A stretch of 64,000 nt of DNA, taken from contig CAZGAK010000001.1 in NCBI GenBank assembly GCA_964523565.1, forward strand, positions 3,867 through 67,866, in the 5' to 3' direction. Positions 495-45,009 of the stretch are shown here, in pieces. The notes below the pieces were generated by a model. It saw nothing but the letters and a program-made list of their open reading frames with translations, was not told the origin of the DNA and did no database searches. The translations under genes and the position numbers were made by a program. Source of the DNA: an uncultured Syntrophaceae bacterium. GTDB lineage: Bacteria > Desulfobacterota > Syntrophia > Syntrophales > UBA6807. Numbering within the stretch: the first letter of the stretch is position 1; each line of letters starts with the position of its first letter.

Positions 495-504
495 CATGAC
501 ATAC

Positions 505-709
505 AGATTCTTTATCCGTAACATGTACGGTTTTTGCGCAGATGTTGGCGACAGCTTATGCGAACAAGACAAAGAATTTTGGTTGCAGCTTTGCTGCTCT
601 GGAAACGTAGGGCAGGGCTTTAGCCCTGCATAAAGCCCAATGCAAGGCTAAAGCCTTGCCCTACATGCAAGAGGTCAACACCTCTTTGGCTGTAGCTTTA
701 CCGCCTTAG
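505..709 (+). repeat. Modular intergenic repeat family 1, alpha core (degenerate left arm, alpha core, right arm)
   Basis: AGATTCTTTAT...TTTTTGCGCAGATGTTGG, then the alpha core including a 58 nt palindrome (607-664), then ...GCTTTACCGCCTTAG. It ends 6 nt before the hemA ATG. Confidence 0.85.
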
Positions 710-715
710 AAAAAT

Positions 716-1990
716 ATGAGTATAATTCTAATAGGAATGAATCATAAAACAGCGCCCTTGCATATAAGGGAGAGACTGTCTATATCCTGCGAGGAAGATA
801 ATAACAGGAACTTGAATGAGATAAAAAAGATTTCTCAGGTGCATGAGGTGATGTATCTCGCAACCTGTAACCGTGTGGAAGTATTGGCGAACATGGAAGA
901 TGTTGAGGGAAGTGCGGAAAAATTAAAAACCATTATCCTTTCACATGGTAATCTGTCTCATGAAGAGATGAAAGAATGCCTCTATGTTTATCGCGACGAT
1001 GATGCAGTGCGTCATCTTTTCAGAGTGGCCTCAAGTCTTGATTCCATGGTTATGGGAGAGCCCCAGATTCTCGGTCAGGTGAAGGCTGCATATAGTCACA
1101 GCGTTGAGCAAAAAGCATCAGGAATTATACTGAACAAATTACTTCACCATGCTTTTCGTGTAGCAAAGAGGGTGAGAACGGAAACGGGAATTGCCAATAA
1201 TGCCGTATCTGTGAGCTTTGCCGCCGTAGAGCTGGCTAAAAAGATATTCGGGTATCTTCATGGGAAAACTGTTCTTCTTGTCGGTGCCGGTGAGATGTCG
1301 GAGCTTGCGGCAAAGCATTTAATGAACAATGGTGTAAGCAAGATTATTTTTGCCAACAGGACGTATGAAAATGCGGTAAGGTTAGCTAATGATTTTCATG
1401 GCGTGGCCGTTAGTTTTGATCTTCTCGTAGAAAAACTCAAGGAAGTCGATATCATCATCAGTTCTACAGGCGCTTCCGGCTATGTTATCACCGAGGAAAT
1501 GATCACAGAAGCCTTGCGAAGACGTAAAAACAGACTCATGTTTATAATAGATATAGCCGTACCAAGAGATGTGGCCCCGACCGTAGAGGAAATCGACAAT
1601 GTCTATTTGTATAACATCGACAATCTTCAGGAAATCGTGGATGAAAATTTGAGGAGCCGTATGGGAGAGGCGGAAAAGGCGGAGACAATAATTGCTGAAG
1701 AGATCGTTAACTTTACAAGTTGGCTCAATACGCTGAAAGTTGTTCCTGCCATTGTCTCTCTCAGAAAAAAGGCCGAGAACATTATAGAAGGAGAACTCGA
1801 AAAATCCCTGTCATGGATGAGAAGTTTAAATGAAGAGGAAAATGAAAAAATCAAAATACTTGCCTCTTCCATCGTCAATAAATTACTTCATGATCCGATT
1901 ACAAGTCTTAAAGATGAAAGTCAAAACAGCGGAGCCGATCCTTATGTAGCTGCCATCATGAAGTTGTTCAGGCTGGAAGGGGAGAAATGA
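716..1990 (+). CDS. hemA: Glutamyl-tRNA reductase
   Basis: 424 aa. N-terminus is GMNHKTAPLHIRERL with the active-site region LATCNRVE. NADPH-binding GAGEMSELAAKHL is present, and the gene sits in a heme-gene context. Confidence 0.95.
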   Translation: MSIILIGMNHKTAPLHIRERLSISCEEDNNRNLNEIKKISQVHEVMYLATCNRVEVLANMEDVEGSAEKLKTIILSHGNLSHEEMKECLYVYRDDDAVRHLFRVASSLDSMVMGEPQILGQVKAAYSHSVEQKASGIILNKLLHHAFRVAKRVRTETGIANNAVSVSFAAVELAKKIFGYLHGKTVLLVGAGEMSELAAKHLMNNGVSKIIFANRTYENAVRLANDFHGVAVSFDLLVEKLKEVDIIISSTGASGYVITEEMITEALRRRKNRLMFIIDIAVPRDVAPTVEEIDNVYLYNIDNLQEIVDENLRSRMGEAEKAETIIAEEIVNFTSWLNTLKVVPAIVSLRKKAENIIEGELEKSLSWMRSLNEEENEKIKILASSIVNKLLHDPITSLKDESQNSGADPYVAAIMKLFRLEGEK

Positions 1991-2958
1991 TTTCCGGTTT
2001 ATCCGGGTCAGGAGGAGAAAATATTAAGGATATATTAAAAATAGGAACGCGAGGAAGTCGTCTTGCACTGATACAGGCGAATCTTGTGGCAGATCAATTG
2101 AAAAATAAATACCCTGACTTGCATATCGAAATCACTGCCATCAAAACGAAGGGAGATAAGTTGCAGGATGTTGCCTTGGTCAAGATCGGAGGGAAGGGTG
2201 TTTTTGTCAAGGAGATAGAAGAAGCCCTTTTGCGGGGAGATATCGATATTGCCGTTCATAGCATGAAGGATGTGCCGGTAGAACTGCCTGATGAGCTGGA
2301 AATAGGAGCTATTCCTGCAAGAGAGGACCCCCGCGATGTTCTCGTATCGAAGAATAACAGCAAGATAGAAGAACTTCCGAAAGGGGCAAAGATAGGGACT
2401 GGTTCCCTGAGAAGAACAATTCAGCTCCAGAGTCTCTTGCCGGATATTGAGATTGTGCCGATCCGGGGGAACCTCGATACGCGAATCAGAAAAATCGTAA
2501 CAGAAGATCTTGATGGTATAATAGTGGCCGCAGCCGGAATGAGACGTATGGGTTTGAAAAAGGAGATTTCTCAATATATTCCCATAGAGTGGATGATACC
2601 TTCAGCAGGGCAGGGGGTGCTCGGAATTGAACTTAGAAAGAATGATGAAGAAATCAAAAACCTTGTTTCCTTTCTCAATCATACGGATACGGTGATCGAA
2701 CTTTCTGCCGAGAGAACCTTCCTGAAACACCTGGGTGGAGGATGCCAGGTGCCGATAGGCGCTATTTGCAAAAAACAGGGTGACAGATTAATTCTCAGAG
2801 GTCTTCTGGGAAGTATTGATGGCGGTATAATTATTTCGGATGAAGTAAGGGGGTCCTGTAAAGATTCGGAAGAGATGGGCAGAACAATGGCAGAGAATAT
2901 CCTGTCAAGAGGCGGCCGGGAGCTGCTGGAGGAAATATATAGAGACTGTGAAACTTGA
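1987..2958 (+). CDS. hemC: Hydroxymethylbilane synthase (porphobilinogen deaminase)
   Basis: Contains IGTRGSRLALIQA, AVHSMKDVP, GTGSLRR and the cofactor cysteine context GGCQVPIG. A 4-nt overlap with hemA suggests translational coupling. Confidence 0.95.
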   Translation: MISGLSGSGGENIKDILKIGTRGSRLALIQANLVADQLKNKYPDLHIEITAIKTKGDKLQDVALVKIGGKGVFVKEIEEALLRGDIDIAVHSMKDVPVELPDELEIGAIPAREDPRDVLVSKNNSKIEELPKGAKIGTGSLRRTIQLQSLLPDIEIVPIRGNLDTRIRKIVTEDLDGIIVAAAGMRRMGLKKEISQYIPIEWMIPSAGQGVLGIELRKNDEEIKNLVSFLNHTDTVIELSAERTFLKHLGGGCQVPIGAICKKQGDRLILRGLLGSIDGGIIISDEVRGSCKDSEEMGRTMAENILSRGGRELLEEIYRDCET

Positions 2959-3127
2959 AAGTGGTAAGTGAAAAGTATCTGAATGTCAAATTCCAAAGCT
3001 CAAATGCCAAATTAAATCTAAATTTAAAAAACCAAGAGTTATTTTTGTAATTTGGACTTAGGATTTTGGAATTATATTTAAGACAAGACAGGCTTAAATG
3101 TAACTTCTCGAAAAGTAGGGATAATAT

Positions 3128-3212
3128 CTCAAAAAACAGGAGCACTATAAAAGGCTCACGCCTAAATTCCTTATTTGGAGTTTACCCATAAGGGTTTTAC
3201 CCTGATTTATTG
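3128..3212 (+). repeat. Repeat family 2 (85 bp)
   Basis: CTCAAAAAACAGGAGCACTATAAAAGGCTCACGCCTAAATTCCTTATTTGGAGTTTACCCATAAGGGTTTTACCCTGATTTATTG. A second copy lies at 37694-37810. Confidence 0.8.
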
Positions 3213-3250
3213 AGAAGATACGCTTAAACTAATTAAGGTATCTATATTAA

Positions 3251-4771
3251 ATGAAGAAACAGGGCAAAGTATATATCATCGGTGCGGGGCCGGGTGACCC
3301 GGACCTTATAACAATTCGGGGAGTGGAATGCCTCAAAAGATCCGATGTAATTGTCTATGATTATCTTGTTTCCAGGGATATTCTGAAATATACGAGGAAA
3401 GATGCCCGCTTGATCTATGTCGGGAAAAAGGGTGGCGACCATACGGTGCCTCAGGAAAATCTGAATCAGATTCTTGTGAAAGAGGCATCGGAGGGAAATG
3501 TCGTTGCCAGGCTGAAGGGTGGTGATCCCTTTATCTTTGGAAGAGGGGGGGAGGAGGCCGAGGTCCTTTCCAAGGCGGAAATACCATTTGAGATAATCCC
3601 CGGCGTTACTTCGGCCATAGCTGTTCCTGCCTATGCCGGCATTCCTCTGACCCATCGAAAATATGCGTCTTCCGTTACCTTTGTGACAGGGCATGAAGAT
3701 CCGACGAAGGGCAAGAGCAGTATTGATTGGGAGAACATATCTGCCGTTGGGACCATTGTATTCCTGATGGGGGTAAAGAACCTGACCCATATTGTGACAA
3801 GTCTGATAGAAAATGGGAGGGATCCCGGTACACCCGTTGCCTTGATCAGATGGGGGACAACTTCCTATCAGGAGACGTTGACCGGAACGCTGAGTAGTAT
3901 AGCGGAATTGGCAAAGGAAAAGAACTTTTTGCCACCCGCCATATTTGTCGTGGGAGATGTAGTTAAATTTAGAGATGATCTCAGCTGGTTTGAAAAAAAG
4001 CCCCTTTTTGGAAAGGGAATCATGATTACAAGGCCGGAGGAGCAGTCGGAAGAATTTTCGTCTCTTTTACGTGAAGAGGGAGCGAGGGTTATCCCGTTTC
4101 CCACCATCAAAATCGTTCCTCCTGATCGTTTCGATGATCTGGATCGGGCGATCAAAAACATTGAAAGATATGAATGGATTATATTTACCAGTGCAAATGG
4201 AGCGAAGTTCTTTTTTAATCGCTTTTGGGAATTGGGCAGTGACATACGAGACCTCAAGGGTATTAAAATATGTACAATCGGTCCCGCAACCGCCTCTGCC
4301 ATAGAGATGCTGGGTGTCAAAGTCGATCTTGTCCCTGACGAATATATCTCCGAGGGTGTTGTGGATGCATTTAAGGGGAAAGTAATGCAGGGGAAGAAAG
4401 TGCTTCTGCCCAGGGCTGAAATCGCCAGAGATGTTATCCCCCAGGGTCTTTCGAAAGTGGGTGCACATGTCGATGTTGTAACGTCTTATCGAACTGTCAA
4501 TTCGGGAAAGAATAAGGCAGAGCTTGATGAAATGATGGATCAGAACAAAGTCGATGTGATTACCTTTACAAGTCCGTCAACGGTGACTAATTTTATAGAT
4601 ATAATCGGGAAGGATACAAGACTTCCGGAACATGTAAAGATTGCATGTATAGGGCCGGTGACATTGGATGCAGCAAGAAAGGCAGGCCTGAAAGTTGATA
4701 TCATGCAGGGGCCCTATGTCATTTCCGGCCTGGTAGATGCCATTATAAAGGCATTTGAGAGTGAAGAGTGA
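3251..4771 (+). CDS. cobA-hemD: Bifunctional uroporphyrinogen-III C-methyltransferase / uroporphyrinogen-III synthase
   Basis: The N-terminal roughly 250 aa has the SUMT signature VYIIGAGPGDPDLITIRG...VVARLKGGDPFIFGRGGEE. The C-terminal roughly 250 aa is HemD-like (IFTSANGAKFF, ITFTSPSTV). Total length 506 aa. Confidence 0.9.
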   Translation: MKKQGKVYIIGAGPGDPDLITIRGVECLKRSDVIVYDYLVSRDILKYTRKDARLIYVGKKGGDHTVPQENLNQILVKEASEGNVVARLKGGDPFIFGRGGEEAEVLSKAEIPFEIIPGVTSAIAVPAYAGIPLTHRKYASSVTFVTGHEDPTKGKSSIDWENISAVGTIVFLMGVKNLTHIVTSLIENGRDPGTPVALIRWGTTSYQETLTGTLSSIAELAKEKNFLPPAIFVVGDVVKFRDDLSWFEKKPLFGKGIMITRPEEQSEEFSSLLREEGARVIPFPTIKIVPPDRFDDLDRAIKNIERYEWIIFTSANGAKFFFNRFWELGSDIRDLKGIKICTIGPATASAIEMLGVKVDLVPDEYISEGVVDAFKGKVMQGKKVLLPRAEIARDVIPQGLSKVGAHVDVVTSYRTVNSGKNKAELDEMMDQNKVDVITFTSPSTVTNFIDIIGKDTRLPEHVKIACIGPVTLDAARKAGLKVDIMQGPYVISGLVDAIIKAFESEE

Positions 4772-4858
4772 AGAGATAAATTTTGAATTTTGAATTAGAA
4801 GAATCGGAATTCGTATTCTTTCCGGGATCTCTGTGGTTAGTAATAAAAAGGGTGAAAA

Positions 4859-6037
4859 ATGATCGGAATTTCTAAATTATACTGTGGTGGCGTTGAACCT
4901 TCGGATGTCCTCCGTTACGGAGCGGAATCGGGGAAACTCCCCTCCCATCTCCTCCAGTTTTCAAAGGATAAACGTCCCGTCGTGGTATGGAACGCGACAA
5001 GGAGATGCAACTTACAATGCATACACTGCTATTCCAGTTCCCAGAATGTTAAATATGGTGATGAGTTAAATACGGATGAAGGTAAAAGATTGATATCCGA
5101 TCTTGCCTCGTTTGGCAGCCCTGTCATCCTGTTTTCCGGGGGAGAACCCCTGTTGAGAAGAGACCTGCCCGAACTTGTGCAATTTGCCGTAGATAAGGAA
5201 ATGCGGGCAGTCATATCGACAAACGGTACACTCATTACGAAGGAAAAGGCCGCAATTTTTAGTAAAATCGGTCTTTCCTACGTTGGTGTGAGTATTGATG
5301 GCATGAAAGAAACGCATGATCTGTTCAGGGGGGTCAATGGGGCATATGATGCTACTCTTCGAGGGATCAGGAACTGCCAGGATGCGGGGATCAAAGTAGG
5401 GGTGCGTTTTACCATAACGGGAAAAAATTATTCTGAAATCCCTGCAATTTTTGACTTCATTGAAAAAGAAAACATACCCCGGGCATGCTTCTATCATCTT
5501 GTTTATTCGGGCCGCGGTTCCGCCCTGATCGAAGAGGATTTATCCCACACTGAAACGCGGAAAGTTGTCGATGCAATAATGGACAGAACACGTGATCTCT
5601 TTGAAAGGGGTATATCCAAAGAAATACTTACTGTGGACAACCATGCCGATGGTCCCTATATTTATCTGCGCCTGCTTAAGGAAGATCCGAAGAGGGCGGA
5701 AGAGGTTTTGGAACTTCTCAAAATGAATGAGGGAAACAATTCAGGGAGAGGAATCGGTTGTGTAAGCTGGGATGGTGAGGTGTATGCAGACCAGTTCTGG
5801 AGAAACATCTCTTTTGGAAATGTCAGGAAACGCCCCTTCAGTAAAATCTGGCTGGACACCTCCAATGAATTGATGGCACAGTTAAAGGATAAAAAGTCTC
5901 ATGTGAAGGGAAGATGTGCCACATGCCGCTGGCTCGACGTATGCGGAGGAAATTTCCGGACAAGAGCCGAGGCCGTTGCCGGTGATATCTGGGCTCCTGA
6001 TCCCGCATGTTATCTGATGGATGGAGAAATAGGCTAA
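4859..6037 (+). CDS. ahbC: Radical SAM/SPASM enzyme of the NirJ family, probably AhbC (Fe-coproporphyrin III synthase, NirJ2 type)
   Basis: CNLQCIHCY radical SAM cluster motif and a C-terminal Cys-rich auxiliary-cluster region, CATCRWLDVCGGNFRTRA. The N-terminus ISKLYCGGVEPSDVLRYG is typical of the NirJ2 type, and the gene lies in the heme cluster. Assigning this gene rather than its paralog as AhbC relies on memory of family N-termini. Confidence 0.65.
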   Translation: MIGISKLYCGGVEPSDVLRYGAESGKLPSHLLQFSKDKRPVVVWNATRRCNLQCIHCYSSSQNVKYGDELNTDEGKRLISDLASFGSPVILFSGGEPLLRRDLPELVQFAVDKEMRAVISTNGTLITKEKAAIFSKIGLSYVGVSIDGMKETHDLFRGVNGAYDATLRGIRNCQDAGIKVGVRFTITGKNYSEIPAIFDFIEKENIPRACFYHLVYSGRGSALIEEDLSHTETRKVVDAIMDRTRDLFERGISKEILTVDNHADGPYIYLRLLKEDPKRAEEVLELLKMNEGNNSGRGIGCVSWDGEVYADQFWRNISFGNVRKRPFSKIWLDTSNELMAQLKDKKSHVKGRCATCRWLDVCGGNFRTRAEAVAGDIWAPDPACYLMDGEIG

Positions 6038-6088
6038 AGGTGAAAGGCTAAAGGCAAAAGGAAAAAAAGAGGAGGGGGAAAGTAAACC

Positions 6089-7063
6089 ATGCAATATCCT
6101 GATTATAGACCGAGGAGATTAAGAAAAAACGAAAATTTCAGGAGGATGATCCGGGAGACCAAATTGTCCGTTGATGATCTTGTTTATCCTCTTTTCGTGA
6201 CGTTTGGAAAAGATGTCAAAAAACCGATTACTTCCATGCCGGGTAATTTTCAGATGTCGATTGATTATCTGGTAAAGGAGGTACAAAAGACAAAGGATAT
6301 GGGCATACCTGCTGTTCTCCTTTTCGGTATTCCCGAGAAAAAGGATGAAACGGCTTCAGGGGCCTTTACAGAGGATGGAATTATCCAGCGTGCCGTAAGA
6401 GAAATCAAAGATAAGGTTCCCGATATCCTGGTGATCACCGATTTGTGCCTTTGTGAATATACAAGCCACGGTCATTGCGGGATGCTTGAAGGTGATGAAG
6501 TGGATAATAATTCCACCCTTGAGGTCCTCGCGGAAACAGCAGTGTCTCAGGCAAAGGCCGGTGTCGATATAGTTGCTCCTTCAGGGATGATGGACGGTCA
6601 GGTCGTTGCGATTCGGGAGGCCCTTGATGATGCAGGTTATGAAACACTCCCTATCATGGCGTATTCGGCCAAGTATGCCTCATGTTTTTATGGTCCTTTC
6701 CGGGAAGCTGCCGAGAGTGCCCCCCAGTTTGGTGACAGAAAGGCTTATCAAATGGATCCTCCCAACAGCGATGAAGCCATCAGGGAAATAACACTCGATG
6801 TCGAGGAGGGAGCCGATATTATTATGGTTAAACCCGCACTTCCGTATCTTGACATTATACGCAGGGCAAAAGAGGAATTTGATTTACCTCTGGCGGCCTA
6901 CAACGTAAGTGGAGAGTTTTCCATGATCAAGGCGGCGGCAAACCTTGGATGGATTGATGGAGAAATGGCCATGATGGAAACCCTGATTTCGATCAAGAGG
7001 GCGGGAGCCGATATTATTATTACCTATTTCGCGCAGGATGCGGCGGACATTCTTGCAAAATAG
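6089..7063 (+). CDS. hemB: Porphobilinogen synthase (delta-aminolevulinate dehydratase)
   Basis: RPRRLR N-terminus, cysteine-rich metal site [14 protein letters not shown], and active-site lysine contexts [11 protein letters not shown] and AYNVSGEF. Confidence 0.95.
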
Positions 7064-7148
7064 GTTTCGTCCCCTTACCTATCGCGATATGAAGGAATTG
7101 ACAATTTGTTACTCTAAAATAAACAAATTGCTATTCAGGAGGGGCGAG

Positions 7149-9450: not shown

Positions 9451-10485
9451 ATGATCGCCTGGGAGGTGACACGAAGGTGTAATCTGTCATGCCTCCACTG
9501 CCGGGCTTCTTCAGAGCATGGCCCCTATGAAGGGGAATTTACCACAAATCAGTGTTTTAAACTCCTCGATGACATAGCAGCATTCAGTAAGCCCGTAATT
9601 ATCCTTACCGGAGGGGAGCCGTACCTTCGTGATGATATTTATGAAATCGCTTCCTACGGGGATCAAAAAGGTTTACGCATGGTGCTGGCAACCAACGGCA
9701 CCCTTGTTACCGATGAAATCGCGAGAAAGACTCTGGAATCGGGGATTAAAAGGGTCAGCATCAGCATTGACGGTTCCAATGCAGACAATCACGATACCTT
9801 TCGCGGTGTTCCCGGTGCATTTGATGGTTCTATGGCAGGTATTGAGTCCTTTAAGAAAGCCGGCGTAGAATTTCAGATCAATACGACAATAACACGCCTG
9901 AACCTGGATCAGATTGAGGACATTTTTAAACTGGCGATTGATTTAGGTGCCGCTGCCCACCATATCTTCCTTCTGGTTCCAACCGGTCGTGCCAGGGAAA
10001 TGCTGGATCAGGAGATACCGCCGGAAGATTACGAAAAGACTTTGAACTGGTTTTATAAACAGAGTTTCTCCTGCCCGCTCCAGCTTAAAGCAACATGTGC
10101 CCCCCAGTATTACCGGATTTTCCATCAAGGGAAAAAAGAGAGAGAAAAAAAATCAGTAATCGAGGAGAATCCGTTTCATGCCATGACAAGGGGCTGTATG
10201 GGGGGAAGTTCCTTTTGCTTTATTTCCCATACAGGGCAGGTACAGCCTTGCGGTTTCCTTGAGGTTGACTGCGGTCAGATTAAAGAAGATAATTTTGAAG
10301 ATATCTGGAATGATTCACCTGTTTTTAGCGACTTGAGGGATCTCAGGCTGTATAAAGGAAAGTGCGGACGTTGCGAGTTCATAAAAGTATGCGGGGGGTG
10401 TCGTGCCCGTGCCTACGAAATTACAGGAGATTATCTTGCCGAGGAACCGTTTTGCGTTTATGAACCAGGGAATAGGGGGCAGTGA
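9451..10485 (+). CDS. ahbD: Radical SAM/SPASM enzyme of the NirJ family, probably AhbD (heme b synthase, NirJ1 type)
   Basis: N-terminus MIAWEVTRRCNLSCLHCRA and C-terminal CGRCEFIKVCGGCRARAY auxiliary-cluster motif, in the heme-cluster context. Confidence 0.65.
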   Translation: MIAWEVTRRCNLSCLHCRASSEHGPYEGEFTTNQCFKLLDDIAAFSKPVIILTGGEPYLRDDIYEIASYGDQKGLRMVLATNGTLVTDEIARKTLESGIKRVSISIDGSNADNHDTFRGVPGAFDGSMAGIESFKKAGVEFQINTTITRLNLDQIEDIFKLAIDLGAAAHHIFLLVPTGRAREMLDQEIPPEDYEKTLNWFYKQSFSCPLQLKATCAPQYYRIFHQGKKEREKKSVIEENPFHAMTRGCMGGSSFCFISHTGQVQPCGFLEVDCGQIKEDNFEDIWNDSPVFSDLRDLRLYKGKCGRCEFIKVCGGCRARAYEITGDYLAEEPFCVYEPGNRGQ

Positions 10486-10559
10486 TCAGTGGTCAGTGAT
10501 GAGTAAGTTGTCTTGATCAGATACAAATTGAACCTTGAACCTTTTACCTTTGCCTTGCC

Positions 10560-11006
10560 ATGGACGAAACAGACAAAAAAATTCTTAATATTATCCAAAC
10601 CGATTTTCCTGTAGAAGCAGAGCCCTTTAAGGTTCTTGGAGAGAAAATTGGCATCAGCGAAGATGAAGCCCTGAAGCGTGTAAAAAAGCTTAAAGACGGC
10701 GGAATCATACGCAGAATCGGAGCGATATTCGATATCGGAAAGCTCGGATTTGCGAGTACCCTCTGTGCCGCAAGGGTTCCGGAAGAGAAAATCAATGAAT
10801 TTGTTAAGGTTGTTAATTCATATCCTGGTGTTACCCACAATTACAGAAGAACCCATGAGTACAATATCTGGTTTACCTTTATTGCTCCATCCGAGGATGA
10901 AATAAAAAGATCCCTGAAAGAAATCAGTGATAAAACCGGAATTGCTGATATTCTCAATTTGCCTGCGAGAAGAAAATTCAAAATTGATGCCAGCTTTGAG
11001 CTGTAA
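10560..11006 (+). CDS. Siroheme decarboxylase subunit (AhbA/AhbB; NirD/G/H/L-type Lrp/AsnC-like protein)
   Basis: 148 aa. It has an N-terminal HTH (DKKILNIIQTDFPVEAEPF) followed by an AsnC-type domain (GVTHNYRR), and it is adjacent to the ahbD-like gene. Confidence 0.6.
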   Translation: MDETDKKILNIIQTDFPVEAEPFKVLGEKIGISEDEALKRVKKLKDGGIIRRIGAIFDIGKLGFASTLCAARVPEEKINEFVKVVNSYPGVTHNYRRTHEYNIWFTFIAPSEDEIKRSLKEISDKTGIADILNLPARRKFKIDASFEL

Positions 11007-14313: not shown

Positions 14314-14335
14314 AATGTAACCCCTTTATCACTTA

Positions 14336-14469
14336 TTAGATTCTTTATTCTCAACAACCGAGTCCTTTGAGCAGATATTGAAAGGCGAAAGGCTGAAGGC
14401 TAAGGGCTGAAGGAAAAACCTTTAGCCCTTGGTCCTCATTGCTCAGTCCTTGCGGCTTTGCCGCATTAG
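14336..14469 (+). repeat. Modular repeat family 1, beta core
   Basis: TTAGATTCTTTATTCTCAACAAC..., a heptad-built beta core, then GCGGCTTTGCCGCATTAG. It is nearly identical to the reverse complement of 25251-25398. Confidence 0.9.
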
Positions 14470-14491
14470 ATTGTTGATCCTCTCGCAATGT

Positions 14492-20730: not shown

Positions 20731-21780
<1,050 letters not shown>

Positions 21781-21841
21781 ACTGAATGTTTAGTCTTCTA
21801 TAGAAAAATATCCTCAGGATTTCGCATCACCCTTCGAGTGA

Positions 21842-22044
21842 TTAGAGTCTTTATTCACAACAACTGCGTTTTTTGCGCAGATGCTGGCGGAAAATAAATC
21901 CGAAATTCGAATATCGAAATACGAAACAAATTCGAATATCAAATAACAAAATTTCGAAACAGTTTTGGACATTCGAGTTTAGGGTTTTGATATTGTTTCG
22001 AATTTCGTACTTCGGATTTCGAATTTGCAGCTTTGCTGCCTTAG
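21842..22044 (+). repeat. Modular repeat family 1, gamma core (flip orientation)
   Basis: TTAGAGTCTTTATTCACAACAACTGCGTTTTTTGCGCAGATG, then an AT-rich palindromic gamma core, then GCAGCTTTGCTGCCTTAG. Confidence 0.9.
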
Positions 22045-22098
22045 AATATACCCCCGGAAGGTACGTGGTTTCGCTAAATTCTTCTTTTTAGATGAAAA

Positions 22099-22908: not shown

Positions 22909-23399
22909 TATATTACCTTTTAATGCCAATATTTTCATTGTTGTTACTTGTGTTTCAGGCAACGATTCTCGACCTTTTTTTCCTGGGAAAAATAAGGTTG
23001 GAAATATCCCTTATACTGGTTATCTACGCGGGCTTTTATCTTGATCTTGTCAAGGGTGGAATTCTGTCCTTTACTCTGGGATTTTTTCTTGACTGCATGA
23101 CAAGTCTGGTTCCGGGACTTTTTACTTTTATTTATATGGTAATATTTTTTATTTCCAAGAATGTTTCCTATAGAGTTTATCCTGAAGGAATTCCGTTTAT
23201 CATGATGTTTACGTTTATATGCGCATTTTCAGAAGGGATTGTAATATTTTTACTCTATAAATTTATGTTCGGTGCAAATATATTTCATGATATTTTGAAT
23301 ATGTATCTCCCGCAGTCTCTGGTAATTGCGGTTATTTGTCCAGCCTGTTTTGCGTTGTTTTATCGGCTCGAGGGTTTGTTACATGACGGAAAAGAATAG
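22905..23399 (+). CDS. mreD: Rod shape-determining protein MreD
   Basis: 164 aa polytopic membrane protein following mreC with a 4-nt overlap. Confidence 0.7.
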   Translation: MIYYLLMPIFSLLLLVFQATILDLFFLGKIRLEISLILVIYAGFYLDLVKGGILSFTLGFFLDCMTSLVPGLFTFIYMVIFFISKNVSYRVYPEGIPFIMMFTFICAFSEGIVIFLLYKFMFGANIFHDILNMYLPQSLVIAVICPACFALFYRLEGLLHDGKE

Positions 23400-25254
23400 T
23401 AAATTAGCCCAATATGACCCTGGTGAATTCAGGAGGAAGTTTAGGGTATTGATATGGTTGGTACTCTTTGCATTTGTTTTTCTCGTTGCCAAAATGTGGT
23501 ATCTCCAGGTAATAAAGGGAGAGGAATTAATTCAGCGATCCAAGAACAACAGGATTCGCCTTCAGGAAACAAAACCATTAAGAGGCTTGATTCTGGATAC
23601 GCGCGGGAAAGTCCTGGTAGATAATCAACCGTCCTTTGACATTTCAATCATTCCAGAAGTAGCAAAAAATGTGGAAGGTGTTATCAAAAGGCTGGCCTGT
23701 GAATATGGCGAGAATGAAATAGAACTCTATAACAATTTTTCATCATCAAAGCACAGGAAACCTTTCGTTCCGATTAAGCTTGAAAAAAATATTGGAAGAG
23801 ATAAGTTAGCCGTAGTTGAGACAAACTCTTTGGATTTGCCCGGCGTCGTCGTTGATGTTGTGCCTGTGAGAAAGTATATTTATGGTGAGATGATGGCTCA
23901 TATCCTTGGTTATGTGAGTGAGATTAGTACTGTTGACCTGGGCAGGGATTTGTACGGTGAATACAAGCCCGGTGATATTGTCGGTAAATCAGGCATTGAA
24001 AAATGGGTAGACAGATATTTAAAGGGTGAAAGCGGGGGAGAACAGATAGAGGTAAATGTTAACGGTAGAAAATTGAATGTCCTGGGGAAGGTTGAATCCG
24101 TTCCCGGATACAATGTCATGCTAACCATCGATGCCGATCTTCAAAGGATTTGCTGGGATGCCTTTCAGGAAAAGGCGGGCACCGTGATCATGATGGACCC
24201 TCGAGACGGTTCTATACTGGCCATGATAAATAAACCTTCTTTTGATCCAAATCTTTTTAACCGGGGCATATCAGGCGAGGATTGGAACAAACTTTTAAAT
24301 AACCCACTCAGTCCCATGCAGAATAAGGCTATTTCCGGGCAATACCCCCCCGGTTCCACATATAAATTGATCGTGGCTGCTGCCGCTCTTGAAGAGGGCC
24401 TGGTAACCCCTCACACAAGGTATCTTTGTGATGGTACGTATAAGATGGGTAACCGGACATTCAGGTGTTGGAAAAAGTATGGCCATGGTAATGTCAGTTT
24501 ACACCGTGCTATTGTAGAGTCCTGTGACGTATATTTTTACAATCTGGGAGCACAAATCGGCGTTGATAAATTGGCACAGTATGCACGGAAGTTTGGGTTA
24601 GGATCGAAAGCGGGTGTGGAGCTTTCCGGAGAGAAAAGCGGCTTGATACCAACAAAGGAGTGGAAACTGAAAAGGTTGAATAAACACTGGCAGATGGGCG
24701 AGACGATTTCATTATCTATAGGTCAGGGGTTTATTTTGTTGACTCCTTTACAACTTATTAGAACCTACTGTGCCCTGGCGAATGATGGTGTTCTATATAA
24801 ACCGAGACTTATAAAAAGAATTATGACGGAACAGGGGCAGATCATTAAGGAATTCCCTCCTGAAAAGGAGCCTCTTATACCTGTCAGTAAAAAAAATATT
24901 GAGATATTAAACCTTGCATTATGGGGAGCTGTAAACGAAGATCATGGTACGGGACTGGCTGTGAGAAGAAGGGGGAAGGATGTCTGTGGGAAGACAGGTA
25001 CTGCGCAAGTCATAGCAATGCCTCAGGATAAGAAAGATAGTGATATAGAAAACATTCCGTATAAATATAGAGATCACGCCCTTTTCGTTTGTTTCGCGCC
25101 GTATAAAGATCCTGAAGTAGCAGTAGTAGTGATTGTAGAACATGGAGGTCATGGGGGATCTGCTGCCGCTCCCATTTCGAGAAAGATTATTGACGGGTAT
25201 TTTGAAATCAAAGAGAGGAGAAACAGCCTCCAGTCTCGTGAAGTACAAGGCTAA
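23383..25254 (+). CDS. mrdA: Penicillin-binding protein 2 (elongasome transpeptidase)
   Basis: Contains STYK (GSTYKLI), SCD-type (SxN-equivalent) and KTGTAQ motifs. I prefer ATG 23383 (MTEKNSKL...) to the track start at 23326. The stop codon TAA at 25252-25254 lies inside a repeat arm. Confidence 0.9.
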   Translation: MTEKNSKLAQYDPGEFRRKFRVLIWLVLFAFVFLVAKMWYLQVIKGEELIQRSKNNRIRLQETKPLRGLILDTRGKVLVDNQPSFDISIIPEVAKNVEGVIKRLACEYGENEIELYNNFSSSKHRKPFVPIKLEKNIGRDKLAVVETNSLDLPGVVVDVVPVRKYIYGEMMAHILGYVSEISTVDLGRDLYGEYKPGDIVGKSGIEKWVDRYLKGESGGEQIEVNVNGRKLNVLGKVESVPGYNVMLTIDADLQRICWDAFQEKAGTVIMMDPRDGSILAMINKPSFDPNLFNRGISGEDWNKLLNNPLSPMQNKAISGQYPPGSTYKLIVAAAALEEGLVTPHTRYLCDGTYKMGNRTFRCWKKYGHGNVSLHRAIVESCDVYFYNLGAQIGVDKLAQYARKFGLGSKAGVELSGEKSGLIPTKEWKLKRLNKHWQMGETISLSIGQGFILLTPLQLIRTYCALANDGVLYKPRLIKRIMTEQGQIIKEFPPEKEPLIPVSKKNIEILNLALWGAVNEDHGTGLAVRRRGKDVCGKTGTAQVIAMPQDKKDSDIENIPYKYRDHALFVCFAPYKDPEVAVVVIVEHGGHGGSAAAPISRKIIDGYFEIKERRNSLQSREVQG

Positions 25255-25398
25255 GGCGGCAAAGCCGCAAGGGCTGAGCAATGAGCAATGAGCAATGAGG
25301 ACCAAGGGCTAAAGGTTTTTCCTTCAGCCCTTAGCCTTCAGCCTTTCGCCTTTCAATATCTGCGCAAAGAACGCGGTTGTTGAGAATAGAGATTCTAA
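25251..25398 (-). repeat. Modular repeat family 1, beta core, inverted orientation
   Basis: CTAAGGCGGCAAAGCCGC...CTGCGCAAAGAACGCGGTTGTTGAGAATAGAGATTCTAA. It contains the mrdA stop codon. Confidence 0.9.
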
Positions 25399-25434
25399 TA
25401 AGTACCTTAATTGTAAAGTTCTTGCAAAAATGGC

Positions 25435-25573
25435 AAAAGAATTTGGCTGTAACTTTGCAGACTTGGAAACGTAGGGCAGGGCTTTAGCCCTGCATAAAGC
25501 CCAATGCAAGGCTAAAGCCTTGCCCTACATGCAAGAGGTCAGCACCTCTTTGGTTACGGATTTGCCGCCTTAG
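25435..25573 (+). repeat. Modular repeat family 1, alpha core, left arm missing
   Basis: Carries the alpha core with a 58 nt palindrome (25471-25528) identical to that at 607-664, plus the right arm ...GGATTTGCCGCCTTAG. It ends 10 nt before the rodA ATG. Confidence 0.85.
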
Positions 25574-25583
25574 GTAATATAAA

Positions 25584-26693: not shown

Positions 26694-26778
26694 ATTTGCG
26701 GAGATTTTATTTAACGCAGATTTTGTGGTAGATTGCTACTGCAAAATATGGGTTTAAGGAGGGTTTAAGGAGGGTTAA

Positions 26779-30636: not shown

Positions 30637-31512
30637 ATGGCCTCGTTAAAGGATATTAAAGATAAAATTCAGGGAGTTAGTAAAACGAAGCAGATCACCA
30701 GGGCGATGAACATGGTGGCTGCATCGAAGCTGAAAAGCACTCAATTAAGAATGGAAAACTTCAGGCCATATGCGGAGAAGTTTATGGAGGTACTAAACAG
30801 TGTGGCCCTGCGGGTAAATCCTGACATGCATCCTCTCCTGGCAGTCAGAGAACCGAAAAAAGTTCGAATCATATGTATGACATCGGACAGGGGCTTGTGC
30901 GGTGGTTTTAACTCGAATGTGATGAGGGCAGTAGAAGGATTCATCAGGCACAGGTCTAAGGAGGGTCAGGAAGTTTCGTTGGTTGCTGTCGGGCGAAAAG
31001 GAAGAGATCACTTCAGAAAGAAGGCAAATATGATCGGTCAGCACACGGACGTTTTTAAACAGTTTGACATCAGTCTGGCTGACAGTATCGGGAGAGAATT
31101 GATTTCTTCTTTTATAGATGGGGAATATGATGAATTGCACATTGCATACAATGAGTTTCGGAATATCGCTGTTCAGAGGCCGAAGATAGACAGACTGCTT
31201 CCGATGAAATCTACAGACTCGGCAGAGGAGATTGCGCCGGAAAGAAAACTTGGGTACATTTATGAACCGGAAGAAGAGATTCTAATAGAAAAACTTCTCC
31301 CAACATATATCAGGGTAATGACTTTCAGGGCACTTCTGGAGACAGCGGCAGGTGAAAACGGAGCTCGAATGGTTGCCATGGACAACGCAACAATCAGTTG
31401 CGAAGAGATGATTGGGGATCTGTCCTTGAAATACAACAAGGCGAGGCAGCAGGCTATTACTGCAGAACTCATGGACATTGTCGGGGGTACGGAGGCCTTG
31501 TCCAAGGGGTGA
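30637..31512 (+). CDS. atpG: F-type ATP synthase subunit gamma
   Basis: N-terminus LKDIKDKIQGVSKTKQITRAMNMVAASKL and C-terminus QAITAELMDIVGG. Confidence 0.95.
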   Translation: MASLKDIKDKIQGVSKTKQITRAMNMVAASKLKSTQLRMENFRPYAEKFMEVLNSVALRVNPDMHPLLAVREPKKVRIICMTSDRGLCGGFNSNVMRAVEGFIRHRSKEGQEVSLVAVGRKGRDHFRKKANMIGQHTDVFKQFDISLADSIGRELISSFIDGEYDELHIAYNEFRNIAVQRPKIDRLLPMKSTDSAEEIAPERKLGYIYEPEEEILIEKLLPTYIRVMTFRALLETAAGENGARMVAMDNATISCEEMIGDLSLKYNKARQQAITAELMDIVGGTEALSKG

Positions 31513-31529
31513 TTAAATTCTTAATTCTT

Positions 31530-31682
31530 AAATTTGATGGTTTCGTAAAAAGTCAAAAACTCGCTAATATGTCATTCCCGCGAAAGCGGGAATCCAGTAA
31601 TTACACGCAGTTATAGATTCCCGATCAGATCGGGAATGACAAAACGGCAAAAACTCCGACTTTTTACGAACTTGTCAAATTT
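31530..31682 (+). mobile_element. 153 bp MITE-like structured repeat (family 3), complete copy with terminal inverted repeats
   Basis: The TIRs are AAATTTGATGGTTTCGTAAAAAGTC... and ...GACTTTTTACGAACTTGTCAAATTT. Internal hairpins are ATTCCCGC-GAAA-GCGGGAAT and ATTCCCGAT-CAG-ATCGGGAAT. A second, truncated copy lies at 49010-49122. Confidence 0.8.
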
Positions 31683-33685: not shown

Positions 33686-33722
33686 CAAGCCAGGGAGGTT
33701 TCACTTTCCTGGCTTGTTTTTT
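33686..33722 (+). terminator. Rho-independent terminator after atpC
   Basis: A 9 bp stem, CAAGCCAGG (33686-33694) with CCTGGCTTG (33708-33716), followed by TTTTTT. Confidence 0.75.
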
Positions 33723-33737
33723 AGTTGTATAGACATT

Positions 33738-33931
33738 ATATTCTTTATTCTCGACAACTGCGTTTTTTGCGCAGATGTTGGCGGAAAATAAATCCGAAGT
33801 ACGAAATTCGAAACAATATCAAAATCTTAAACTCGAATGTCCAAAACTGTTTCGAAAATTTGTTATTTGACTTCGACGTGAGCTCAGTCGAACGATATTC
33901 GGATTTCGGATTTGCGGCTTTGCCGCTTTAG
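33738..33931 (+). repeat. Modular repeat family 1, gamma core (flop orientation)
   Basis: The left arm ATTCTTTATTCTCGACAACTGCGTTTTTTGCGCAGATG and right arm GCGGCTTTGCCGCTTTAG are in the same orientation as 21842-22044. However, the 79 nt central segment 33790-33868 is the reverse complement of 21941-22019. Confidence 0.9.
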
Positions 33932-33941
33932 GAGTTTAATC

Positions 33942-35420
33942 ATGGTGCGAGCAAAGGGGTTCTTGTCAGGTCTTTTTATAGTTGCTTTGTTTTGTACTCT
34001 ATTTTTGGATCCAGGTGTTGCTTACTGTGCCGCCGAAGAGGCCTCACATCATGGAGGTAATATAGGAGAAATATTATCGGCCTGGACAGTGATTCCTTTT
34101 GTCGGTATTTTACTGTCCATAGCTTTGCTTCCTTTGCTTATGCCTCACTTCTGGCATAATCACTTCGGTAAGATTTCGGCATTCTGGGCGTTGCTGTTTG
34201 CGATTCCGTTTCTCTATGTTTATCATTATGTGGCATTATACGAAATTCTGCACATCTATCTAATTGATTATTTCCCGTTTATCATTCTTCTCTGGGGCCT
34301 CTTTACCGTTGCGGGAGGAATCGTGGTCGGTGGTTCAATAAAGGGGACCCCGGTTGTCAACACGATTATGTTATTGATAGGAACGATATTGGCCTCCTGG
34401 GTAGGAACGACGGGAGCAGCCATGGTTATGATACGTCCTCTTTTAAGGGCAAACAAGAACAGGGTAAACAAAGTACATGTCGTGTGCTTTTTTATATTTC
34501 TTGTGGCCAATATCGGGGGTTCGCTCACACCGCTTGGCGATCCGCCGCTATTTCTTGGATTTCTCCATAATGTTCCGTTTTTCTGGGTTACGACAGCTAT
34601 CCTCCCACATATGTTGTTAACGTCGTTGATACTGTTGGTTCTGTTTTTTGCCGTTGACACATTTTACTATAATAAAGAGAAAGATGAGTTGAAAAAGATA
34701 GGGCCAATGGAACAAGTTCCCATCAGGATTCAGGGTGTGCATAATTTCATTTTTCTGGCGGGTATTGTCGTCCTCGTTCTCATAAGCGGTTATTGGAAAG
34801 CGGGACATTTCAGTGTAATGGGTATTCACATGACGTATCAGAATCTCCTGCGGGATGTTGGAATTATCATTATGGGAACACTCTCTCTCCTGTTAACCTC
34901 CAAGAGTCTTCGGGAAGAAAACGAATTCAGCTGGTTTCCGATAATGGAAGTGGCCAAACTTTTTGCCGGCATTTTTATGACGATTATTCCTTGCCTGGCA
35001 ATCCTGAAAGCTGGAAGTAACGGTGCCATGGCCGGTCTTGTAGCTGTCGTGAAAGAGCCGTTTCATTATTTCTGGGTAGCCGGCACACTCTCCTCTTTCC
35101 TTGATAATGCGCCTACCTATCTCACCTTCTTTAACCTTGCTCTGGGCAAACTCGGCTTAACAGAGGCAATGGTTCCGGCTGCGCTGGCGGCAAAAGCGGC
35201 GACGGCAAATCCTGTGTTTATCAGTTATCTGAAAGCAATATCAGCAGGTGCGGTCTTTATGGGCGCCAATACCTATATCGGCAATGCGCCGAATTTCATG
35301 GTTAAATCTATTGCTGAAGAAGCGGGAATTAATATGCCGAGTTTTTTCGGTTATATGTTTAAATATTCAATTCCTATTCTTATTCCCATATTTGTTGTTG
35401 TAACTTTTGTATTCTTTTAG
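33942..35420 (+). CDS. Ion transporter of the ArsB/NhaD permease superfamily (putative Na+/H+ antiporter)
   Basis: Polytopic membrane protein of about 490 aa resembling NhaD/citrate-transporter-type permeases. I prefer ATG 33942, 10 nt after AGGAG; the track start at 33912 lies inside a repeat. The stop codon TAG at 35418-35420 lies in a repeat arm. Confidence 0.55.
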   Translation: MVRAKGFLSGLFIVALFCTLFLDPGVAYCAAEEASHHGGNIGEILSAWTVIPFVGILLSIALLPLLMPHFWHNHFGKISAFWALLFAIPFLYVYHYVALYEILHIYLIDYFPFIILLWGLFTVAGGIVVGGSIKGTPVVNTIMLLIGTILASWVGTTGAAMVMIRPLLRANKNRVNKVHVVCFFIFLVANIGGSLTPLGDPPLFLGFLHNVPFFWVTTAILPHMLLTSLILLVLFFAVDTFYYNKEKDELKKIGPMEQVPIRIQGVHNFIFLAGIVVLVLISGYWKAGHFSVMGIHMTYQNLLRDVGIIIMGTLSLLLTSKSLREENEFSWFPIMEVAKLFAGIFMTIIPCLAILKAGSNGAMAGLVAVVKEPFHYFWVAGTLSSFLDNAPTYLTFFNLALGKLGLTEAMVPAALAAKAATANPVFISYLKAISAGAVFMGANTYIGNAPNFMVKSIAEEAGINMPSFFGYMFKYSIPILIPIFVVVTFVFF

Positions 35421-35624
35421 ATTCTTTATTCTCAACAACTGCGTTTTTTGCGCAGATGTTGGTATCAGCTTATGCGAATAAGACAAAGAATTCTGGTTGC
35501 ACCTTTGCTGCCTTGGAAACGTAGGGCAGGGCTTTAGCCCTGCGTAAAGCCCAATGCAAGGCTAAAGCCTTGCCCTACATGCAAGAGGCCAACACCTCTT
35601 TGGTTGCGGCTTTGCCGCCTCAGG
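35417..35624 (+). repeat. Modular repeat family 1, alpha core, full length
   Basis: TTAGATTCTTTATTCTCAACAACTGCGTTTTTTGCGCAGATG, then the alpha core (palindrome 35521-35578, one substitution), then GCGGCTTTGCCGCCTCAG. Confidence 0.9.
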
Positions 35625-35648
35625 GATATAATGACGGGAGAATGAGAA

Positions 35649-36230: not shown

Positions 36231-36266
36231 GTATTAAGGATTATAGTCGAAGATCCGCTTGATCTC

Positions 36267-36427
36267 CTAAGGCGGCAAAGCCGCAAGGACTGAGCAACGA
36301 GCAATGAGGACTGAGAACTAAAGGCTAAAGGTTTTTCCTTGATCCTTTGTCCTTGTACCTTGCACCTTTTCACTGCTGACACTAAAATCTGCGCAAAAAA
36401 TGCAGTTGTTGAGAATAAAGAATCTAA
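36267..36427 (-). repeat. Modular repeat family 1, delta core, inverted orientation, full length
   Basis: CTAAGGCGGCAAAGCCGC..., then a heptad-built delta core, then ...CTGCGCAAAAAATGCAGTTGTTGAGAATAAAGAATCTAA. It contains the stop codon of the speD-speE fusion. Confidence 0.9.
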
Positions 36428-37512: not shown

Positions 37513-37525
37513 GGCAAAATAAACT

Positions 37526-37658: not shown

Positions 37659-37693
37659 TCCCTTAAGCGAGAAATTAAATTTTCTTGTAACAG

Positions 37694-37810: not shown

Positions 37811-37826
37811 GGCTGATTCATTTTCT

Positions 37827-37945: not shown

Positions 37946-37957
37946 GTGTCACTATAT

Positions 37958-45000: not shown

Positions 45001-45009
45001 AATATTACC

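Follow-up and report, generated by a model that had tools for sequence, protein, structure and literature searches.

Why would the DNA between genes repeat itself every seven nucleotides? This question is raised by a 64-kb stretch of the genome of an uncultured Syntrophales bacterium (contig CAZGAK010000001.1), which we will call the window. A first-pass annotation had noticed that repeat cores and spacers beside genes in the window are built from 7-nt units, or heptads. We found that these arrays are non-coding, that head-to-tail 7-nt units are in excess over other unit sizes, and that most of the long arrays sit within a dispersed, modular element. The arrays are probably slippage-type repeats, similar to the short tandemly repeated heptanucleotides (STRR) of cyanobacteria, that have spread as the cargo of this element, have been exchanged by ectopic recombination, and are tolerated as selfish or neutral DNA.

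Heptads between genes

Using the list of open reading frames (ORFs) as a gene map, we divided the window into 9.5 kb of intergenic DNA and 54 kb of coding DNA. For each lag k, we computed the fraction of positions that match the base k nt away, with 300 dinucleotide-preserving shuffles as the control. This is the autocorrelation check that the first-pass annotation had proposed, and intergenic DNA did show the excess: the identity at lag 7 was 0.305, versus 0.264 after shuffling (z = 9.2). Lag 21 had z = 5.0, and no other lag from 2 to 29 was above z = 3.3. The coding DNA of the window had no peak at lag 7 (identity 0.247). With the nine recognized dispersed elements masked, lag 7 still had z = 4.4 in the 7.6 kb of spacer DNA that was left, so the heptads in gene-proximal spacers hold beyond the repeat cores.

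We then counted arrays with two strict filters. Requiring at least 17 of 21 lag matches gave 8 arrays at lag 7, all of them intergenic, and 0-1 arrays at each of lags 4-12. Requiring at least 12 of 14 gave 10 arrays at lag 7, again all intergenic, with none in the 54 kb of coding sequence, as expected from the earlier claim that a period of 7 is not coding. Across both filters, there were 8-10 arrays at lag 7 versus 0-3 at lags 4-13. Tandem Repeats Finder (TRF) reported 53 rows for the window, about 20 of which had a period of 7, 14, or 21. TRF arrays are present in about 11 of the 38 spacers of at least 30 nt, all within the first 38 kb, and we did not see heptads in all of the spacers. The sequence of the unit varies by family (AAGG type, GAGCAAT, AAATTCG, AATTTTG, GAGTGAA, or CAGTGAT) while the period is fixed at 7. 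The arrays do not encode a peptide repeat: no start codon precedes them, and they can lie between a promoter and the annotated ATG.

Some of the arrays are free-standing:

2975-3075 (+): weak AATGCCA-type arrays that face TTTGGAN; upstream spacer of cobA-hemD
4755-4797 (+): GAGTGAA x 2.6 and then AATTTTG x 2.6, straddling the cobA-hemD stop codon; the fold is not significant
6031-6066 (+): (NNAAAGG) x 4, in the spacer that separates a stop codon from the hemB ribosome-binding site; its similarity to the 5' arm of the beta core (described below) is 65-70%
10480-10504 (+): CAGTGAT CAGTGGT CAGTGAT, at a stop codon
10528-10556 (+): TTGAACC TTGAACC TTTTACC, immediately upstream of the ATG at 10560; no Shine-Dalgarno sequence is apparent
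31513-31534 (+): TTAAATTC/TTAATTC array, directly after the atpG stop codon and followed by a miniature inverted-repeat transposable element (MITE), epsilon, at 31520-31643

The first-pass annotation had described such arrays as a stutter after stop codons. The arrays are indeed present (4755-4797, 6031-6066, 10480-10504, and 10528-10551), but the one at 10528-10556 abuts a start codon. Similarly, the array that it read as AGTGAAGAG twice at 4760-4800 is real, but its unit is the 7-mer GAGTGAA, repeated 2.6 times and overlapping the last codons and the stop codon of the ORF at 3251-4771.

The regions with free-standing arrays (2958-3085, 4750-4860, 6020-6090, 10478-10562, and 31505-31545) fold no better than shuffled sequences do (z = -0.8 to +1.2). 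This implies that the period of 7 is not simply a by-product of building hairpins or of selection for them.

A modular element with shared ends

A repeat search of the window showed that the long arrays are parts of a dispersed, modular element. The left end reads TTAG-ATTCTTTATTCTCAACAACTGCGTTTTTTGCGCAGATGTTGG, or as a pattern, TTAG-N18-CAACAaCTGCG-T6G-CGCAGaTGTTG. In the fold of an alpha element (see below), CAACAaCTGCG and CGCAGaTGTTG form an interrupted stem of about 11-12 bp, which begins 18 nt after TTAG. The right end is TTGCGGCTTTGCCGC-N-TTAG, that is, a GCGGC-TTT-GCCGC hairpin that stops 1 nt before TTAG. Besides a few single-sided changes, the stem of the right end has a compensatory variant, with GCAGC/GCTGC in place of GCGGC/GCCGC.

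Several types of core lie between these ends. In most of the long arrays, the core is an imperfect hairpin, (NNNAAGG)n-AAAAA-(CCTTNNN)n, with two complementary arms around an AAAAA loop. The beta elements (14331-14472, 25251-25403, and 36264-36430) continue with TGCTCAN units after the CCTTNNN arm. The gamma cores (21840-22050 and 33735-33935) are long hairpins of AAATTCG-type heptads, and in the delta copies (37524-37662 and 37825-37950), the left end is reduced to a stub. The same left and right ends also frame structured cores that contain no heptads (alpha; 503-716 and 35417-35631). The instances in the window, with minimum free energies (MFE) where computed, are:

503-716 (+): alpha element with left and right ends and a non-heptad core; ends at the hemA start codon
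14331-14472 (+): beta element between two minus-strand genes; TTAG and left end at 14335-14380, a degenerate hairpin; core at 14379-14449, GAAAGGC GAAAGGC TGAAGGC TAAGGGC TGAAGG-AAAAA-CCTTTAG CCCTTGG TCCTCAT TGCTCAG; right-end hairpin TTGCGGCTTTGCCGCATTAG at 14450-14469; MFE -43.9 kcal/mol, z = -4.7
21840-22050 (+): gamma element in the mreB-mreC spacer, with a left end, an AAATTCG-type core, and the right end GCAGC-TTT-GCTGC; MFE -58.3, z = -4.85
25251-25403 (-): second beta copy, in the opposite orientation and 94% complementary to 14331-14450, inside the mreBCD-pbp2-rodA operon; its TGAGCAA array (25275-25299) has 3.6 copies, two units more than in 14331-14472
25404-25580 (+): partial alpha (non-heptad) core with a right end (25554-25573); ends 10 nt before the rodA start codon
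33735-33935 (+): second gamma element, just past the intrinsic terminator of atpC (33686-33716); its right end, TTTAGGAG, is the ribosome-binding site for the ATG at 33942
35417-35631 (+): alpha element with canonical ends; the start codon at 35649 follows 18 nt downstream; MFE -91.5, z = -6.2
36264-36430 (-): left end, heptad hairpin, and right end, between convergent genes
37524-37662 (+): proximal delta copy in the 5' untranslated region (UTR) of speD-speE, with the left end reduced to CTTTCTTTATA; ends 11 nt before the ATG; read with the gene, R'-(GAGCAAN/CTAAAGG)n-TTTTT-(CCTTNNN)8
37825-37950 (+): distal delta copy, with 5 CCTTNNN units

The first-pass annotation had read the beta core as consecutive 7-mers. 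The sequence at 14379-14462 is as it described, but the register begins at 14379 rather than at 14377. In the two gamma elements, the left and right ends are in direct orientation, and the central cores (21939-22019 and 33790-33870) are 96% reverse-complementary to each other. Apparently, the hairpin core was flipped between otherwise parallel copies.

Compared to shuffled sequences, the beta, gamma, and alpha elements fold strongly (z = -4.7, -4.85, and -6.2, respectively), while the delta hairpins fold only marginally better than shuffles do (z = -1.0 to -2.4). We computed the MFE of 13 cores on both strands. The better-folding strand was inconsistent, so we could not assign a polarity as RNA. 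The heptad elements are not intrinsic terminators: there is no T run after the heptad hairpins in either orientation, some elements lie inside the essential mreBCD-pbp2-rodA operon, whose genes are tightly coupled in relatives, or in a leader downstream of a conserved promoter, and a canonical terminator follows atpC. A terminator scan found the atpC terminator and the mini-hairpin of the left end, and the heptad cores were not among its predictions. We also considered whether the left end might contain a promoter. A scan for sigma-70 sites gave no match, and by eye, the spacing of a sigma-54-like GG...GC is off by one.

Some of the elements are probably transcribed. Upstream of the speD-speE fusion gene, we identified a candidate promoter:

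37953-37981 (-): sigma-70-type promoter of speD-speE, TTGACA-17 nt-TATATA, present in all relatives (aligned upstream regions, L036-L044)

This position would place both delta elements inside the transcribed leader, so heptad elements appear to be transcribed in at least this one place. In the lineage of the window, the leader consists of the delta elements, which replace an unrelated leader and an AAGGAGG ribosome-binding site in the relatives. The replaced leader does not match any riboswitch in Rfam.

The ends of the element often coincide with the boundaries of genes, and these coincidences are consequences of insertion. For instance, the complement of a right end (CTAA) provides the TAA of pbp2 (25252-25254), and the TTAG in the left end of 36264-36430 provides the TAG stop codon of speD-speE (36424-36426). 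The SpeD-SpeE match in L036 (2851-3951) spans 1,101 nt, versus 1,089 nt for the gene in the window. Insertions apparently remodeled the 3' ends of the genes for PBP2 (23326-25254) and SpeD-SpeE (36424-37512). Four start codons (716, 25584, 33942, and 35649) also have a right end (TTAGGAG) 5-30 nt before them, and the same arrangement is seen in about eight loci from metagenome-assembled genomes (MAGs).

Unit number, distribution, and possible origins

The first-pass annotation had argued that copies differ by whole heptads. This is the case within the window. The alignment of the beta copies (14331-14469 and 25251-25403) has one 14-nt gap, equal to two TGAGCAA units. The two delta copies, between which a difference of three units had been noticed, have 8 and 5 CCTTNNN units, and their other arms are 45 and 52 nt.

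It had also been suggested that heptad counts be compared across strains, and the counts do differ. L086 encodes a SpeD-SpeE protein that is identical to that of the window, and over 2,828 nt (aligned to 39019-36185 of the window), we found one mismatch and one indel. The indel is exactly one GAGCAAT unit in the distal delta element (37914-37920 of the window), which is absent from L086. Two metagenome contigs whose SpeD-SpeE proteins are 94-96% identical to that of the window, L036 and L044, each have one delta element at this position, which contains 20 CCTTNNN units in L036 and 4 in L044. With the window's two copies, this gives 4, 5, 8, or 20 units at the speD-speE leader. Among these orthologous leaders, the 3' arms are 28, 35, 56, or 140 nt and the 5' arms are 38, 45, or 52 nt, which are all 7n or 3 + 7n. 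The leader of L036 contains a 35-nt block (five units) three times. These comparisons show that the arrays gain and lose whole 7-nt units, as well as blocks of 14, 21, and 35 nt. Every difference in length that we could measure between paralogs or between orthologs is a multiple of 7, as slippage predicts, which supports the earlier proposal of slippage-driven expansion.

Larger blocks are duplicated as well. Relative to L036 and L044, a delta element plus its spacer was apparently duplicated as a block (287-nt spacing). Another repeat family, ..CTTATTTGGAGTTTACCCGTAAGGGTTTTACC.., lies between the delta elements (37688-37817) and upstream of cobA-hemD (3122-3219), and a 32-nt unit of this family is tandemly duplicated at 37736-37798.

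To examine the distribution of the element, we scanned one genome per GTDB species for the left-end pattern, which returned 29 loci. Of these, 28 are in eight MAGs that are labeled as Syntrophales, Syntrophaceae, Thermodesulfobacteriota, or "Desulfobacterales." The other locus, from a MAG of Calditrichota, is a chance match. In the 28 MAG loci, the same ends frame many cores: heptad hairpins of the AAGG/CCTT type, gamma, alpha, and several others. With N runs removed and a looser filter, these loci contain 17 arrays at lag 7 (12 of them outside of end-bounded elements) and 0-7 arrays at other lags. Examples include (CCTTGAA) x 8 and stand-alone AAGG...CCTT hairpins, and units of the AAGG/CCTT type dominate across several of the MAGs. 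With the strict filter, there are 14 lag-7 arrays in 166 kb of MAG loci with left ends, versus none in 178 kb of control sequence (36 loci from distant taxa).

Closer relatives can lack heptads too. L081-L085 have the same gene order as the window and MreB proteins that are 88-93% identical to its MreB, and we found no lag-7 arrays at their syntenic loci. Their mreB-mreC spacer is about 120 nt, and their pbp2 and rodA genes are overlapping or adjacent. At the mreB-mreC site of L003 (about 95% DNA identity), the left end is kept, and a delta-type core with its own right end replaces the 5' half of the gamma core. Downstream of speD-speE, L036 has similar arrays without left or right ends. The heptads are a lineage trait that travels with the element family and is reshuffled by recombination.

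Many short-read contigs stop inside the left end or the core (L005, L006 [at 21870/21871 of the window], L012, L016, L017, L022, L026, and L035). In these MAGs, the element family systematically breaks assemblies.

We propose the following mechanism. Replication slippage or unequal exchange would create the arrays and change their size, as suggested by the multiples of 7 and the single-unit indel. A non-autonomous, modular element with hairpin ends, similar to MITEs or to repetitive extragenic palindromic (REP) sequences, would carry the arrays as cargo and disperse them. Ectopic recombination between shared arrays would swap the cores, which could account for both the replaced cores and the arrays without ends. 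The arrays themselves would be selfish or neutral, without one dedicated function. Where they are co-transcribed, in 3' UTRs, operon spacers, or 5' leaders, they might incidentally alter the structure of the mRNA or the access of ribosomes.

Several observations weigh against this proposal. Slippage is deduced from comparisons of sequences, and unequal recombination or gene conversion would yield the same multiples of 7. The proposal gives no reason for a unit of 7 nt; the reasons that have been suggested are the footprint of a polymerase (as cited in PMC4692102) and proteins that bind 7-nt units (PMC4679880). The evidence within the genome comes from 64 kb only. Over 21 kb with two beta elements and one gamma element, the window matches four independent assemblies of its population exactly, so on the shortest timescale the arrays are not hypermutable. 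Another core family, "zeta," varies by a 16-nt block and not by heptads. The dominance of AAGG/CCTT units could reflect selection for their likeness to Shine-Dalgarno or anti-Shine-Dalgarno sequences instead of common descent. As for dispersal, the 28 MAG loci do not include a filled and empty pair for an end-bounded element or a clean empty site, and the mreB-mreC and pbp2-rodA spacers of the relatives, which are short and element-free, are too diverged to define the junctions. A target duplication would make the variants of the flanking TTAG co-vary, which they do not, and the two ends are not inverted copies of each other. Also, we did not identify a cognate transposase within the window.

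Could the arrays instead be selected regulatory RNAs in cis, with AAGG/CCUU tracts that tune translation or the stability of the mRNA and with the unit number as a slow rheostat? The speD-speE leader is the best argument for this, as an ancestral leader with a strong AAGGAGG site has given way to an element whose 4-20 CCTTNNN units directly precede the ATG, downstream of a conserved promoter. A CCTT-type array also abuts the ATG at 10560 in the absence of a Shine-Dalgarno sequence, right ends often precede start codons, AAGG/CCTT units prevail in several MAGs, and there are precedents in the phase-variable heptanucleotides of the Haemophilus hmw genes and in the TAACTGA repeats of Beggiatoaceae, for which a role at start codons was proposed (PMC8262952, PMC4679880). 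But the AAATTCG, GAGCAAT, AATTTTG, and CAGTGAT units are unrelated to Shine-Dalgarno sequences, and arrays are found in both orientations relative to genes, after stop codons, and between convergent genes. Furthermore, the polarity of the hairpins is inconsistent, and within one population, the unit number is stable except for one unit. We consider this explanation unlikely. It is somewhat less likely still that the hairpins are the functional units (as REP-like stabilizers of mRNA, terminators, or palindromes that bind proteins) and that the 7-nt period is a by-product of how stems are built or repaired. This would fit the strong folding of the beta, gamma, and alpha elements, the compensatory variant in the right end, the element between convergent genes, and a hairpin followed by a T run in a MAG (L016). 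However, the free-standing arrays keep the period of 7 without significant folding, one arm reaches 20 units without a partner to pair with, and the delta folds are marginal. Conversely, the alpha cores are strong hairpins with no heptads, and elements lie within read-through operons while atpC has its own canonical terminator.

Two other explanations seem less plausible than these. One is that a shared, transferable enzyme (a nickase or Y1-type enzyme, or a templated polymerase) makes or copies 7-nt units, instead of generic slippage, and that the unit number in the leader is a heritable rheostat for expression. This idea was motivated by the combination of heptads, palindromic mini-insertions of about 24 nt that are nested in them, and hairpin-ended modular elements in both cyanobacteria and Syntrophales, with sister lineages that lack them, and we view it as a long shot. 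The other is chance, low-complexity composition, or an assembly artifact. Taken singly, some of the short arrays (2-2.6 units) would not stand out, but the excess over dinucleotide shuffles, the lack of a comparable excess at neighboring lags, the empty loci from control taxa, and the presence of the same arrays in independent assemblies from ENA, JGI, and Logan refute this explanation, and we give it essentially no weight. Repeats that are resized by slippage and carried by the element are, in our view, the probable explanation.

Genomic setting and known systems

The window is from an ordinary chromosome. It encodes heme biosynthesis genes, polA, mreBCD-pbp2-rodA, bactofilin, the ATP synthase operon, the speD-speE fusion, toxin-antitoxin pairs, sbcDC, and recA-recX. 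Assemblies from ENA, NCBI, and Logan encode a protein identical to its MreB (20743-21780), and the next relatives are proteins from MAGs named "Syntrophales bacterium." This agrees with the earlier statement that the gene content is not cyanobacterial. We found no tRNAs in the window. In Rfam 15, nothing matched at the gathering threshold in the window or in the relatives' loci, and the only matches with E < 1 were generic miRNA hairpins to the alpha core.

Intact sbcD and sbcC genes (49501-54413), which encode a nuclease that cuts hairpins and palindromes, are present despite the many hairpin-forming repeats. The 5-nt loops and the mismatches of the repeats may be an escape from cleavage by SbcDC. 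Directly upstream of the bactofilin gene (26779), a perfect tandem of GGGTTTAAGGA x 2.5 (26750-26776) is a duplicated Shine-Dalgarno region.

Other types of mobile or repeated sequences are found in the window. A palindromic mini-insertion of about 24 nt, CTTCGACGTGAGCTCAGTCGAACG, is present in the second gamma core (33871-33894) and at 45419-45442. In L003, it is found inside a gamma core and inside an epsilon MITE (7086-7109 and 3500-3523), and those exact places are empty in the window. In 2008, Elhai reportedly described small dispersed repeats nested in the heptamer arrays of cyanobacteria, and the CTTCGACGTGAGCTCAGTCGAACG insertion looks alike. The epsilon MITE, of about 165 nt and with terminal inverted repeats (..TTCGTAAAAAGTC..), is at 31520-31643 and 49000-49123 and is unrelated to the end-bounded heptad element. 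In L003 (3405-3582, versus 18517 in the window), there is a copy that the window lacks, flanked by a 9-nt direct duplication, GTCAATTTT, which makes this a clean presence/absence polymorphism. Another MITE-like repeat (57491-57650) has the inverted ends GAGACCTTTGCATAA...TTCTGCAAAGGTCTC and 90% matches in L032 and L035. A related copy in L036 (about 2570-2740, upstream of the speD-speE promoter) is an insertion, compared to the window, at ...CCTTTGCA|GGCC..., apparently with a TGCA duplication.

On the minus strand, 42694-43665 encodes a 323-aa Y1 transposase (IS200-like, and similar to the REP-associated tyrosine transposases, or RAYTs) whose C-terminus carries a helix-turn-helix domain. Its score against REP_Tyr_transpos from NCBIfam is 62 bits, below the cutoff of 80. 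The 300 nt that cover its 3' end (42656-42955) are exactly duplicated 713 nt away (41943-42242), next to a 194-aa ORF (41981-42565, minus strand) that shares the C-terminus of the Y1 protein. We do not think that this is the transposase of the heptad element: the gene is flanked by an inverted repeat, GGGACGTTGTTGAC / GTCAACTACGTCCC, and not by the left or right ends of the element, and its family is ubiquitous rather than lineage-specific. There is also an IS110-family (RNA-guided) transposase at 39343-40245 (plus strand), which matches from model position 50 onwards. Its N-terminus is probably truncated or its start was miscalled. The same region contains the toxin-antitoxin pairs Phd/ParE (43791-44542) and HigB/HTH (44701-45309).

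Why bacterial simple-sequence repeats prefer 7 nt is an old question, which arose first for cyanobacteria and later for Xanthomonas, Beggiatoaceae, and others. The Syntrophales lineage is an independent and phylogenetically sharp case, with heptad-rich genomes beside relatives that have the same gene order and no heptads. It also offers a natural allelic series, with 4-20 units behind a conserved promoter and a one-unit polymorphism in a single population. This contrast could be used to seek a lineage-specific factor behind the period and the effect of unit number on expression. On the practical side, the repeats break short-read assemblies and create false starts and stops of genes, which is relevant to annotating Syntrophales MAGs from methanogenic reactors.

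The heptads of the window show no sign of being a new kind of system. Rather, they are a known kind of repeat in a lineage without an earlier report: in the searchable literature, we found no report of heptamer repeats in Syntrophales, Desulfo- taxa, or Geobacter. The STRR of Calothrix, Anabaena, and Nostoc are intergenic tandems of 7-nt units by the ends of genes, with several unrelated units per genome and with copy numbers that vary between strains. The units of STRR1-3 are CCCCAGT, TTGGTCA, and CAACAGT, and their hosts are heterocystous cyanobacteria. According to Elhai et al. in 2008, STRR are said to co-occur with MITEs and with very small palindromic insertions. The arrays of the window share the general features: intergenic 7-nt tandems by gene ends, multiple units per genome, strain-variable copy numbers, and the company of MITEs and small palindromes. 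They differ in their host (Syntrophales, Thermodesulfobacteriota), in their units (AAGG/CCTT type, GAGCAAT, and AAATTCG), in being degenerate and mostly of 3-8 units, and in forming complementary hairpin arms that are framed by ends. They are not STRR in the strict sense: we did not notice the classic units while reading the arrays, without a dedicated search, and CAGTGGT is a 6/7 match to TTGGTCA after rotation.

As modular elements, they can be compared to the BOX elements of Streptococcus pneumoniae, which are organized as boxA-(boxB)n-boxC with a middle module of 45 nt. Both are modular and intergenic, with conserved terminal modules, a middle of variable copy number, strong predicted structure, positions near the ends of genes, and co-transcription. 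In contrast to BOX, the middle consists of heptads instead of 45-nt modules, and the two come from different lineages and are not similar in sequence. The REP sequences and their mosaics (REP/BIME), the REPIN-RAYT system (PMC3116915, PMC2817692), and the MITEs of the IS200/IS605 family also resemble the element, in that they have GC-rich hairpins with a tetranucleotide, no terminal inverted repeats, and no co-varying duplication. They too are intergenic, are found within operons, and can be mosaic or nested, and the window contains a Y1 (RAYT-like) gene. Unlike in REPs or REPINs, the hairpins of the two ends resemble each other neither in sequence nor in length, and each element has a single right end, with no REP doublets. 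Assignment to the IS200/IS605 type, which the subterminal hairpins and the borders would suit, fails because of the unlike hairpins and the flanks of the Y1 gene.

Published cases of intergenic heptamers come from cyanobacteria (STRR), Xanthomonas, and Nostoc (PMC4692102) and from Beggiatoaceae, other cyanobacteria, and Bacteroidetes (PMC4679880). The GGGAATC repeats of Xanthomonas and the GGGGA(C/T)T repeats of Nostoc (Rehm et al. 2015, PMC4692102) are similar to ours in having an intergenic excess of heptamers, extensive variation in both length and sequence at a given locus among close relatives, and some inverted pairs. They are G-rich, were proposed to form G-quadruplexes, and were not described with conserved ends (PMC4692102), while the units here have no tracts of 3-4 G. 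The TAACTGA direct repeats of marine Beggiatoaceae, cyanobacteria, and some Bacteroidetes (MacGregor 2015, PMC4679880) form arrays of 2-6 or more units, often before start codons that lack a Shine-Dalgarno sequence, and their distribution is also patchy. They have one dominant unit across phyla, and a hairpin organization was not reported (PMC4679880); here, many units share only the period. At hmw1A and hmw2A of Haemophilus influenzae (PMC8262952, PMC12721329), a 7-nt repeat in the promoter or 5' UTR also varies in unit number by slippage. Those repeats are long, perfect, in contingency genes, and with measured effects on expression, while the arrays here are degenerate, dispersed in housekeeping spacers, and known from sequence alone. 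STRR, which the first-pass annotation had named as the nearest precedent, is thus a fair choice, with the addition that heptamers are also known outside of cyanobacteria, in Xanthomonas, Beggiatoaceae, and Bacteroidetes (PMC4692102, PMC4679880).

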